This document shows positions 28,812 to 30,526 of a DNA stretch of 64,000 bases, one piece after another (the stretch's first letter is position 1; each line of letters begins with the position of its first letter). The notes under the pieces were generated by a model. The model was not told the origin of the DNA. It made no database searches and saw only the letters and a list, made by a program, of their open reading frames with translations. The stretch is from a virus. The translations under genes and the position numbers were made by a program. The DNA is taken from IMG/VR virus record IMGVR_UViG_3300045988_135167; one strand, written 5' to 3'.

Positions 28812-28824
28812 TTTTACCGTTCGC

Positions 28825-28850
28825 CGAATTGTTCCACGTGGAACAATTCG
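28825..28850. promoter_or_regulatory. 26-bp perfect palindrome CGAATTGTTCCACGTGGAACAATTCG
   Basis: Read directly; second copy of the CACGTG-core palindrome. Confidence 0.45.
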
Positions 28851-28890
28851 AGAATCACAAAAGGCGAGGTTTTAATCTCGCCGCATAAAT

Positions 28891-28916
28891 AAGCCAATAG
28901 ACAGGAAAATCAAATC
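28891..28916 (+). promoter_or_regulatory. conserved leader copy 3 (AAGCCAATAGACAGGAAAATCAAATC-ATG)
   Basis: Motif match (more diverged). Confidence 0.4.
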
Positions 28917-29162
28917 ATGAAGCCTATCATTACATTCTGCAAGCCGGACCTTTCCGGAAAAATCGCGCCCCTTTGTGGCACGATGGATTCCTATTTGGAC
29001 GACGGCCGCCGCTCCCTGGAGTCCATTAAACAATCTGCATGGGAAGAATTGAAGCGACGGAACGCCCATTCAAAAACCAATTATGCCGGGTTTGTCATTT
29101 ATAATGCCATTTCCTTCCCATGGCGCACCGTGTACAAAACCCATGAAGAAATTGAGGATTGA
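28917..29162 (+). CDS. hypothetical early protein (81 aa)
   Basis: ORF track. Confidence 0.45.
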   Translation: MKPIITFCKPDLSGKIAPLCGTMDSYLDDGRRSLESIKQSAWEELKRRNAHSKTNYAGFVIYNAISFPWRTVYKTHEEIED

Positions 29163-29200
29163 ACCTTTAATTTGAAGGAAAAAGCATATATCTTTGAATC

Positions 29201-29398
29201 ATGATAACTTCATATATTCCCCCTTGCCTTCAGCGGTCCGCGCGTGAATTGGAGCTTGAACTGGCAAAGACCCGGTGGATTCAAGCCGTTGAATACCTGA
29301 AAGAAGAAATTGAAAATAACAAGCACGACAAGCGGAAAGTCCGCGCCTTGCTTCAACGGCTCCGGGATCAATATTCATGGAGGCCTGCTATTTATTAA
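29201..29398 (+). CDS. hypothetical early protein (65 aa)
   Basis: ORF track. Confidence 0.4.
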   Translation: MITSYIPPCLQRSARELELELAKTRWIQAVEYLKEEIENNKHDKRKVRALLQRLRDQYSWRPAIY

Positions 29399-29538
29399 AT
29401 AAAAAATAATGAACAAAAAGCTTGCAATCCGGTTCAAGCAAGCATAGATTGAAAGCATCAACTGAGGCGGCCCGCCGCACAGGGCAATCCAAATCCGGTT
29501 ATCACCGGAAAACTAAAATCCAAACCAAAAACTAATTT

Positions 29539-29952
29539 ATGAATACTAAAGAAAGACGCACAGAAGACCTTCTAAGGGCATTTGGAATTCGATTTTCTAA
29601 ATTTAAATTAGGTCTTAGAATCCCGCCGCACTGGGGCGACTGTCAAGATCGTCACATGGAATATTTGGTACGGTTTGAACGATTGAAGCCGCGGAGGGGC
29701 GAAAAAGATGTGTTAAACGTTTTATGGTACGCTTCTTTACTGAGACCAAATGAATGCACAGCGTTTGACGTTCTGACTACCTTGACTAAAGAAAAGTTCG
29801 CCGATTTTGAAGATTTCGCGGATCAACTTGGTATGGATTATTCCAAAAAAAGTTACAAGCTTTACAACGCCATCCAACAGGAAGCGGAAGACGTGATAGC
29901 TTTCTTTTCCCGTGAAAATGAATTGAACTTAATTTCTACCCTCGAAGACTAA
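29539..29952 (+). CDS. hypothetical early protein (137 aa)
   Basis: ORF track. Confidence 0.45.
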   Translation: MNTKERRTEDLLRAFGIRFSKFKLGLRIPPHWGDCQDRHMEYLVRFERLKPRRGEKDVLNVLWYASLLRPNECTAFDVLTTLTKEKFADFEDFADQLGMDYSKKSYKLYNAIQQEAEDVIAFFSRENELNLISTLED

Positions 29953-29954
29953 AC

Positions 29955-30410
29955 ATGAATCCATTAGTACAAAGAGAATTAGGCTTGCTGATAGTATCCG
30001 TGTCCATGAACCTTGATGGAACGGGAACACTGACTTTTGATCACAAGCATCGCGGCATGCTCAAAACCATGTCATTTCCGAAACTGCCGGACGCGCTCAA
30101 TATGCAGGAACGCATTATTCGTTATACCTGTGAAAAATTGAATAGGGTCAAGTCTTCAAAAGGGCATGTAGTCAACTTTTTTAGGCTATCTCCTTCTCTT
30201 GTCATGGTGAAGGCTCCCATGAACTATTTGACAATGATACAGGGAGATGGACAAAAGCTTAACGTTGATTATGCGACCGCCTTGTTTGCCGAACTGAAAG
30301 AAGGTAGGTTGGTTTCCGATTTTTTCCCGATTCCGGAAGAATTGGAAGTTGTTTATTACAAGGTGGAAGATGATCATCTTGTCATGGTGATTGAAGATAA
30401 GTCACGCTGA
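29955..30410 (+). CDS. hypothetical early protein (151 aa)
   Basis: ORF track. Confidence 0.45.
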   Translation: MNPLVQRELGLLIVSVSMNLDGTGTLTFDHKHRGMLKTMSFPKLPDALNMQERIIRYTCEKLNRVKSSKGHVVNFFRLSPSLVMVKAPMNYLTMIQGDGQKLNVDYATALFAELKEGRLVSDFFPIPEELEVVYYKVEDDHLVMVIEDKSR

Positions 30411-30432
30411 ACCCTTAATCCCTCCGGAAAAT

Positions 30433-30448
30433 GTTCCACGTGGAACAA
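30433..30448. promoter_or_regulatory. third copy of palindrome TGTTCCACGTGGAACA (flanks imperfect)
   Basis: Read directly. Confidence 0.45.
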
Positions 30449-30502
30449 TCCGGGAACCTCAAACCAAATCAAAAGGCAGGATTAAAATCCTGCCACGTAA
30501 AC

Positions 30503-30526
30503 AAACCAATAGAAAGAACCAACAAT
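30503..30526 (+). promoter_or_regulatory. conserved leader copy 4 (AAACCAATAGAAAGAACCAACAAT-ATG)
   Basis: Motif match. Confidence 0.5.

Follow-up and report, generated by a model that had tools for sequence, protein, structure and literature searches.

Two homologous spacers in the early region

The window, by which we mean the whole 64,000-nucleotide stretch of viral DNA analysed here (IMG/VR record IMGVR_UViG_3300045988_135167), contains two related intergenic spacers that each run from the TGA of one gene (ending at 28811 and 30410) to the ATG of the next (28917 and 30527). A preliminary description of the sequence placed the spacers correctly, and was likewise right in dividing each into a palindrome, a GC hairpin and a leader. 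It also held that the two were homologous over their whole length, and a MAFFT alignment that includes the orthologous spacers of relatives supports this, apart from a 10-nt indel between the palindrome and the GC hairpin. A repeat search gave two pairs, 28827-28861/30429-30463 (86% identity) and 28858-28913/30470-30525 (71%). The spacers and the elements near them are the following.

26700..28400, no strand assigned: iteron-rich noncoding region adjoining the gene of the VapE-type primase; putatively both an origin of replication and a divergent control region
28318..28347, plus: promoter P_A, sigma-70-like, TTGACG-18-TAAAAG and then ATCA, upstream of the first early gene
28812..28916, plus: cassette B, the spacer from a 31-aa ORF (28716-28811) to an 81-aa gene (28917-29162)
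28859..28882, minus: A-run and GC hairpin of cassette B, GGCGAGGTTTTAATCTCGCC; the minus strand reads as the hairpin followed by TTTTGTGATT, intrinsic-terminator-like
28883..28916, plus: leader and translation-start region of cassette B, with the degenerate motif CCAATAGACAGGAA at 28894-28907
29422..29450, plus: promoter P_C, sigma-70-like, TTGCAA-17-TAGATT and then ATCA
30411..30526, plus: cassette D, the spacer from a 151-aa gene (29955-30410) to a 210-aa gene (30527-31159)
30471..30494, minus: A-run and GC hairpin of cassette D, GGCAGGATTAAAATCCTGCC; the minus strand reads as the hairpin followed by TTTTGATTTG
30495..30526, plus: leader of cassette D, with the exact motif CCAATAGAAAGAAC at 30506-30519
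31171..31196, plus: hairpin E, stop-proximal and without parS, GCCGGGGAG...CTCCCCCGGC, then the leader motif at 31199-31212
32525..32549, plus: hairpin F1, stop-proximal and without parS, GCCGGGAAGC-CTGAA-GCTTCCCGGC
32564..32585, no strand assigned: A-run and GC hairpin F2, GCAGGCCTCACGGCTTGC, then the exact leader motif at 32599-32612

RNA folding recovers the GC hairpins of both spacers, at 28863-28882 (about -12.5 kcal/mol) and 30475-30494 (about -13.8 kcal/mol). No T-run follows these hairpins on the sense (plus) strand, whereas the antisense strand has TTTTG or TTTGG directly after the hairpins at 28882, 29509, 30494 and 32595. The minus-strand fold is also the more stable in 7 of 10 hairpin variants, with G.U pairs where the plus strand has A.C mismatches. 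It is in the antisense orientation only, then, that the GC hairpins resemble intrinsic terminators, a poor fit to the proposed unit that would simply stand ahead of genes; each could be an interchangeable module that terminates transcription as read on the antisense strand. One candidate source of antisense transcripts, a promoter at 36617->36590, was rejected, as its hexamers drift in relatives and lie within coding sequence.

Exact copies of the leader motif CCAATAGAAAGAAC stand at 30506 and 32599; the copy at 28403 (28403-28416, downstream of P_A) has one mismatch and those at 28894 and 31199 have three, and all five end 7-10 nt ahead of an ATG. Its window-wide count of 12 against 6.2 expected is not significant by itself. 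The A-rich leader ATAGAAAGAA may act as a translation-start region that is poor in, or devoid of, a Shine-Dalgarno sequence. Downstream of P_C lies a further A-run hairpin, at 29494-29509. Units of hairpin plus leader are indeed present ahead of 31220 and 32620, as had been described, but their stop-proximal hairpins lack the 16-bp core that both cassette palindromes carry. Reuse of the cassette before several early genes thus stands, and a transcript-level role for its GC hairpin and leader is still plausible. Rfam returned no match within 26500-34500.

The palindrome core and its conservation

The 16-bp core of the palindromes, TGTTCCACGTGGAACA, is the canonical chromosomal parS, the ParB/Spo0J site, letter for letter. 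It fits the 16-bp inverted-repeat pattern tGTTNCACGTGAAACa that marks chromosomal-type parS, and agrees with the parS of Pseudomonas putida and P. aeruginosa at 16 of 16 positions and with the B. subtilis consensus at 15 of 16. The published sites are TGTTCCACGTGGAACA in P. putida, TGTTCCACGtGGAACa in P. aeruginosa, TGTTCCACGTGGAACG in M. xanthus and TGTTNCACGTGAAACA in B. subtilis (Table 1, PMC7022226). The phage's own host may have this variant or another. Full-text literature matches to the 16-mer were confined to ParABS papers. The window holds three exact copies, the first of which, upstream of the minus-strand PolA gene, was absent from the preliminary description.

20358..20373, no strand assigned: parS copy 1, within a 28-bp perfect palindrome at 20352-20379 (CCGGAA+core+TTCCGG)
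28830..28845, no strand assigned: parS copy 2, TGTTCCACGTGGAACA within a 26-bp perfect palindrome at 28825-28850 (CGAAT+core+ATTCG)
30432..30447, no strand assigned: parS copy 3, within an imperfect palindrome at 30424-30453 (CCGGAAAA+core+ATCCGG)

Copy 1 sits between the stop of an 89-aa ORF (20388-20657, minus) and the start of PolA (20333, minus), and the counterpart of copy 3 in relatives has the perfect form CCGGAT+core+ATCCGG. All parS sites of the phage are intergenic. Five matches to the 16-mer at up to three mismatches occur in the window, against 0.30 expected, and none of 100 shuffles reached five; the three exact copies compare with 0.17 expected at up to two mismatches to TGTTNCACGTGNAACA, and none of 100 shuffles reached three. 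Half-parS heptamers outside the full sites are not enriched. Close relatives (L176-L179) carry a fourth parS between a 319-aa gene and the tail-fibre gene, about 150 nt past the window's left edge, for four copies per ~70-kb genome. The palindrome had been described as an element of early genes, but its presence upstream of PolA and of the tail-fibre gene shows a wider distribution. The iteron-rich region at 26700-28400, whose role as origin is putative, has two copies on its right, at distances of 0.4 and 2.0 kb, and one 6.3 kb away on its left.

Conservation of the core extends well beyond the window. It is invariant in relatives with 79-98% protein identity, including at the orthologous spacers of L122-L129 and L180-L184, where the flanks and the type of adjoining hairpin vary; in one relative (L185) the PolA-proximal copy is absent. 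A scan of viral contigs for the 16-mer, which found at least 120 loci, also yielded the first distant relative (L049). The distant clade comprises 24 IMG/VR loci with ~70-kb genomes and 25-31% identity in a shared early protein (DUF6926), and has the sequence TGTTCCA(CG/CA/TG)TGGAACA at two conserved places. The core is thus conserved independently of its flanks, unchanged across 8 different contexts in the window's clade and, in 17 contexts of the distant clade, varying only at the two central bases. One distant-clade copy falls within an iteron array upstream of early promoters, in noncoding, iteron-rich DNA, and its flanks there are not complementary, which favours DNA recognition over RNA folding. 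Among the matches listed, 10 of 119 other viral contigs with the exact 16-mer have a second parS-like site nearby. The sites of these 10 contigs lie among terminase, RecT and other phage genes, and no ParAB was detected within 4.5 kb.

Host ParB as the probable binder, and alternatives

We found no ParA or ParB Pfam domain in the ~66 ORFs of the window or in the precomputed Pfam record for the part of the genome outside it, and no GERRxRA ParB motif in any of the six reading frames. Many ORFs have no family match, and a very divergent phage-encoded binder may be among them. Because the CACGTG palindrome is an exact parS in a phage without a ParB of its own, the host chromosome-segregation protein is probably recruited; judged by sequence, the core of both cassettes and of the copy upstream of PolA is likely to be a chromosomal-type parS that serves this end. 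The best reading of the analysis is that the sites are orphan host-type parS that, like those of phi29, would load the host's ParB. Chromosomal ParB of the host would bind there as dimers, form clamps in a CTP-dependent manner and spread along adjoining DNA; the host ParA/ParB (and SMC) machinery would then have the phage genome as a cargo or client. These binding and segregation steps we infer from established ParABS biology, as we do the physiological role, which could be episome partition, gene modulation or ParB titration.

The phage looks lytic: PolA, a primase and a helicase are encoded by the phage itself, no integrase was seen, and a need for partition is therefore not obvious. The likeliest benefit would be that a phage genome outside the chromosome is positioned and inherited as cells divide, allowing persistence or delayed lysis. 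Alternatively, the same binding could let ParB clamps modulate the flanking early and replication genes, or could titrate host ParB. If host ParB does load on these sites, a widespread gut phage would exploit the chromosome-segregation machinery of its host, which would offer a testable mechanism for the persistence of a lytic-looking, non-integrating phage in dividing cells. To our knowledge, phage use of host segregation machinery has so far been documented only for phi29-family phages and spores.

It is conceivable, if unlikely, that the palindrome instead serves, as operator or origin element, a DNA-binding protein that the phage encodes and that has no relation to host ParB. Such a protein, for example a regulator or the primase-helicase initiator, would recognise TGTTCCA half-sites in inverted orientation and so govern early and replication genes or mark origins of replication. 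The three to four dispersed copies beside early genes, PolA and the tail-fibre gene would suit such a protein, as would the distant-clade copy amid iterons beside early promoters. Candidates are also at hand, namely the VapE-type primase-helicase encoded in the window, a 92-aa protein (50367-50645) with winged-helix matches below threshold, and the many unannotated ORFs. However, exact identity to parS would then be coincidental unless the binder were a cryptic ParB homologue, and the window's own iteron region contains no copy. The sites, moreover, follow stop codons at a variable 15-27 nt from the next module and do not overlap the sigma-70-like promoters. A sigma-70 promoter overlapping the palindrome itself was rejected, given the variation in this distance to the downstream hairpin and the absence of a consistent -10 element.

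A somewhat fainter prospect is that the palindrome functions only as an intercistronic stem-loop in RNA (an RNase III or RNase E site, 3' stabiliser or attenuator) and matches parS by coincidence. Every copy in the window's clade lies 13-20 nt past a stop codon, inside a palindrome of 26-32 bp whose arms are specific to that copy (CGAAT, CCGGAA, CCGGAT, CCGGGAAA or GGGGAAA). Perfect pairing extends 5-8 bp beyond the core in 7 of 8 contexts, and the mean palindromic extension is 5.75 bp, against near-random values in 119 other parS viral loci among the matches listed. The predicted RNA stems reach -16 to -25 kcal/mol over 11-14 bp, and the parS-free hairpins at 31171 and 32525 hold the same position. 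RNase III sites of the T7 early type, by comparison, are extended duplexes of about two helical turns that are cleaved in vivo, and stems of 11-14 bp are short for that enzyme. A structural RNA would not need an invariant 16 nt across clades whose proteins are ~30% identical, nor does it account for the non-complementary flanks and promoter-upstream iteron location in the distant clade. An unrelated 16-bp palindrome would coincide with parS with a probability of about 4^-8. The element has no Rfam match and lacks, on the sense strand, the U-tract that follows genuine terminators of this phage. The palindrome, whose core is parS and stays invariant as its flanks vary, fits a protein-binding site in DNA better than the transcription or processing unit of the preliminary description.

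The palindromic extension nonetheless calls for explanation alongside a host-ParB reading. ParB does not need a copy-specific extension, so the sites must be under some further constraint, and the sequences indicate that an RNA or DNA hairpin constraint is also present at the parS sites of the window's clade. The core would sit at the tip of the palindrome, in the intercistronic stem-loop position, and the stem-loop, GC hairpin and leader would be transcript-level parts separate from parS function. We tentatively raise the possibility of dual use, in which a host centromere site occupies the tip of an intercistronic RNA hairpin and an abundant, ParB-less gut phage lineage is a client of host ParABS/SMC. 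Were this so, it would imply episomal inheritance in persistent infection of a non-sporulating host, or else expression of early and replication genes tied to ParB clamp occupancy, and the phage would exemplify a wider, unrecognised class of viral parS carriers.

Two further possibilities are barely credible. N4-type hairpin promoters are short, oriented hairpins used by a virion RNA polymerase. The ~70-kb genome, a 3323-aa ORF (38873-48844) of N4-vRNAP-like size and palindromes upstream of genes that could extrude as hairpins recall that system, but we rejected it. Neither a DxDGD-type motif nor a sequence match in Pfam, PHROG or PDB was found for the giant protein, the candidate polymerase; the full symmetry of the element leaves it directionless, some copies stand ahead of late and replication genes on the opposite strand, the distance to downstream modules varies, and sigma-70-like promoters already serve the early genes. 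A verrucomicrobial LexA (SOS) box, which would couple early genes to host DNA damage, was dismissed in the same way, since the half-sites TGTTC and GAACA are those of the 14-bp Verrucomicrobium motif TGTTC-N4-GAACA (PMC4951493) but are spaced here by N6, the CACGTG centre is conserved where the LexA spacer is not, and the full 16-mer is an exact parS.

Comparison with known systems and host searches

Chromosomal ParABS shares with the window phage the identical 16 bp and several copies per replicon. Chromosomal parS lies near oriC; two of the three window copies are within ~2 kb of the putative origin, and a distant-clade copy lies inside iterons. Unlike the chromosomal system, the phage has no cognate parAB operon beside its sites, which are set in hairpin-forming palindromes. 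The closest parallel is phi29, a virulent Bacillus phage that, in the account given by PMC2731898 (citing Meijer et al. 2005), uses five parS sites with host Spo0J. According to the same account, the phi29 genome is thereby carried along by host segregation. By this route phi29 comes to be trapped in spores. As a positive control, our search recovered four exact and one degenerate parS in phi29. Both phages have several exact, host-type parS copies and no partition genes of their own, and one phi29 parS is arranged as in the cassette, with the stop of gene 16 on one side and terminator TD1 on the other. The two differ in that phi29 has a 19-kb, protein-primed genome, a spore-forming host, the B. 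subtilis variant TGTTCCACGTGAAACA and most of its sites within genes, whereas the window phage is a 70-kb uncultured gut phage with the fully symmetric TGTTCCACGTGGAACA at intergenic sites built into longer palindromes.

SGI1 provides a proven case of such hijacking, in which orphan parS mimics exploit the ParABS of an IncC plasmid (PMC10954446). The element gains stability from them and competes with the owner of the system as a side effect (PMC10954446). Like the window phage, SGI1 is a mobile element that carries another replicon's parS and no ParAB; its parS, however, is of plasmid type and dependent on a helper plasmid, in contrast to the chromosomal consensus found here. The linear plasmid-prophage N15 likewise has several centromere-type sites dispersed in a phage genome, inverted repeats scattered close to regulatory regions, and the partition protein bound to them also affects expression there, but N15 has a SopAB of its own and its sites resemble sopC, not chromosomal parS. 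In T7, RNase III processing hairpins separate the early cistrons of a polycistronic transcript, much as predicted stem-loops stand between early cistrons here; the T7 sites are longer, irregular duplexes and share no invariant sequence with a DNA-binding site.

Searches bearing on the host gave distant matches at most. We found no tRNA genes in the phage, no match of its terminase to cultured phages by tblastn, and no identity of 26% or more between its primase and plasmids. Against genome contigs, TnpB reached at most 40% identity, bar one partial match at 48%. Ligase homologues are ~30% identical. Spo0A boxes are not enriched (3 found against 7.3 expected), and hence do not link the phage to sporulation. 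Such a phage would be expected to carry the parS variant of its host, which may aid host prediction. The window phage's exact terminase sequence occurs on 320 contigs.

Two minor observations concern the palindromes as they appear in assembled and annotated genomes. Several assemblies break 3-6 nt from a palindrome. In addition, ORF callers use the ATG that overlaps the parS site (aATGTTCC) as a gene start, as in ORF 30431-31159 and in the call of the tail-fibre gene in L176.

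parS cores in the early spacers

The early spacers at 28812-28916 (B) and 30411-30526 (D), each bounded by a stop codon and an ATG, are homologous over their full length (86% in the palindrome part, 71% in the hairpin and leader). The preliminary description correctly divided each into three modules, palindrome, GC hairpin and leader. The palindrome is built on the core TGTTCCACGTGGAACA, an A-run precedes the GC hairpin, and the A-rich leader holds (CC)AATAGAAAGAAC 7-10 nt before the ATG, a motif that also occurs before 28425 and 28716. Related units do precede 31220 and 32620, but the stop-proximal hairpins there lack the 16-mer core. 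A third exact 16-mer, overlooked at that stage, lies at 20358 on the other strand, in a 54-nt spacer upstream of PolA.

In sequence, the palindrome core is the canonical parS centromere site of bacterial chromosomes. A review table gives parS as TGTTCCACGTGGAACA in P. putida, TGTTCCACGtGGAACa in P. aeruginosa, TGTTCCACGTGGAACG in M. xanthus and TGTTNCACGTGAAACA in B. subtilis (PMC7022226), and all papers found by a full-text literature search with the 16-mer deal with bacterial chromosome segregation. The 64 kb hold three exact copies against 0.17 expected even allowing two mismatches, and the prior chance of an unrelated 16-bp palindrome equalling parS is about 4^-8. The earlier interpretation of the cassette, a transcription or processing unit before early genes, stands in part, with its key element re-assigned to what are, by sequence, orphan host-type parS sites of the kind known from phi29.

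CACGTG is under-represented across the window (6 occurrences, three of them parS cores, against 17.4 expected from base composition), and CCGGGAA (61) and CCGGAAC (38) are strongly over-represented, each against 9.2 expected. Some Logan contigs begin within 3-6 nt of the palindrome (L123:1-22, L126:1-19, L129:1-20), so the repeated 28-32 bp palindromes interrupt short-read assemblies. ORF callers also pick a site-overlapping ATG as gene start (window ORF 30431-31159; tail-fibre call at L176:11598).

The genome of this uncultured phage measures ~70 kb at 53% G+C, and the window covers most of it.

Gene layout of the window
1-26662, minus: gene block, including a PD-(D/E)XK nuclease and ThyX
10098-11930, minus: terminase
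13560-14693, minus: TnpB (IS605 OrfB / Cas12f-like), between nuclease and packaging genes
16002-18512, minus: intein-bearing helicase (Hint, homing-endonuclease and LAGLIDADG domains)
18516-20333, minus: PolA
23735-26662, minus: VapE-type primase
from 28425, plus: small early genes, then NAD-dependent ligase, then the 3323-aa ORF
38873-48844, plus: 3323-aa ORF, no family match
49543-63943, minus: second gene block

Conservation of the sites and their likely ligand

At orthologous spacers the core is invariant in close relatives (79-98% identity in the 173-aa DUF6926 protein), and flanks, spacing and even GC hairpin type vary around it. One locus (L128) has three copies within 12.5 kb, the PolA-proximal copy is kept in 5 of 6 loci, and a fourth copy, ~150 nt past the window's left edge between a 319-aa gene and the tail-fibre gene, is seen in all four loci covering the genome part missing from the window. 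A distant clade with genomes of ~68-70 kb (24 IMG/VR loci at 25-31% identity) carries TGTTCCA(CG/CA/TG)TGGAACA at two conserved places, after the DUF6926 gene and amid iteron arrays that precede the first early promoter.

Whether the palindrome is a DNA site or an RNA hairpin has a clade-dependent answer. Flank complementarity in the distant clade is not above mismatched controls (1.24 bp vs 1.97 bp), and extension of the 16-mer is near-random at 119 unrelated viral loci, among the matches listed; the core is therefore conserved for its sequence itself, which points to DNA recognition by a protein. In the window's clade a hairpin constraint is added: complementary arms of 5-8 perfectly paired bases, differing by copy (CGAAT, CCGGAA, CCGGAT, CCGGGAAA, GGGGAAA), extend the core in 7 of 8 distinct contexts, giving palindromes of 26-32 bp whose RNA stems have predicted energies between -16 and -25 kcal/mol. 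Since the hairpins without parS (31171 and 32525) share the stop-proximal position and CCGGG(G/A)A arms, we suggest that parS was fitted into the tip of an older intercistronic stem-loop.

The window's approximately 66 ORFs yielded no ParA or ParB domain, nor did the precomputed Pfam records of the genes that it lacks, and the ParB box GERRxRA is absent in all six reading frames. The likeliest ligand would thus be the host's chromosomal ParB. Phi29 is a precedent for phage sites served by a host protein, as Spo0J uses its five parS sites to bring the genome of the phage into the forespore (PMC2731898); our own search recovered four exact and one degenerate site, one of them after the stop codon of gene 16 and before terminator TD1. 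Orphan parS mimics are also present on SGI1, though the system hijacked is a plasmid ParABS (PMC10954446). Compared with phi29, embedding in a hairpin palindrome is a twist specific to the window's clade. Bound ParB could possibly partition a persisting episome, its clamps might modulate adjacent genes, or the sites might titrate ParB.

Orphan parS sites may be widespread among phages. Among the matches listed, a second parS-like site lies nearby in 10 of 119 unrelated IMG/VR loci with the exact 16-mer (L007, L019, L034, L056, L082, L087, L092, L099, L111, L120), some pairs just 24 nt apart; in L056 and L087 the pair lies directly upstream of a 487-aa ORF. Neighbouring ORFs at these ten loci match phage families (four terminase large-subunit matches, RecT, ERF, protease), and a search within 4.5 kb found no ParA or ParB.

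GC hairpins, promoters and leader

Antisense intrinsic-terminator-like hairpins in the plus-strand early block
28863-28882, minus
29494-29509, minus
30475-30494, minus
32568-32595, minus
34108-34125, minus

The GC hairpins have T-runs on the minus strand (28882, 29509, 30494, 32595 and 34125), and in 7 of 10 variants the minus-strand RNA folds more stably, owing to G.U pairs that become A.C mismatches in plus-strand RNA. Real terminators of this phage's minus-strand genes share their form. Together these features argue for predicted canonical terminators in antisense orientation, although the hairpins could instead be 5' stem-loops of processed sense mRNAs. A candidate antisense promoter (TTGACT-16-TATAAT, 36617->36590) is near-consensus but weakly supported as the source of antisense transcripts, lying in coding sequence and drifting in relatives. 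Which of two hairpin types (loop TTAAAA or TCAC) occupies a given locus differs between relatives, and L126 carries both in tandem.

Sigma-70-like promoters of early genes lie at 28318 and 29422, followed by ATCA; those of the distant clade are clearer (TTGACA-17-TAAACT, then hairpin and leader). Shine-Dalgarno use is very low (7-14 of 59 genes), so the best reading of the conserved leader is a translation-start region that lacks a Shine-Dalgarno sequence. The distant clade also repeats (A)GTTACACCGCCCTATAAAATC after several early-gene stops (L049:1640-1700, 2130-2200, 2510-2560, 3300-3360); it resembles a promoter without a -35 element (TATAAA type) and has no counterpart in the window.

Probable origin or control region, and gene content

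A ~1.7-kb noncoding region (26700-28400) adjoining the primase gene is probably a replication origin or control region. It is dense in GAAGCGTTGAATC-type iterons with 8-nt phasing, and a 33-nt perfect inverted repeat (28073-28105 / 28208-28240) encloses two 31-nt tandem repeats (28125-28186). At the plus/minus convergent junction (49490-49535), an 11-bp GC stem (ACTCCCCCGCT...AGCGGGGGAGT) with weak T-runs is probably a bidirectional terminator.

Window proteins recur as exact copies on hundreds of metagenomic contigs, the longest reaching 68-71 kb, and no relative was found among cultured phages. The 3323-aa ORF has no sequence match in Pfam, PHROG or PDB and lacks the two-barrel polymerase motif; it is similar in size to the N4 virion RNA polymerase, with a negative homology search. 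In relatives, the helicase C-terminal part is called as a 416-aa product, preceded by 1.2 kb with hardly any called gene. A Tad2-like anti-Thoeris gene lies at 58189-58674, and an Acb2/Tad1-like gene at L176:15510-15698, in the genome part outside the window.
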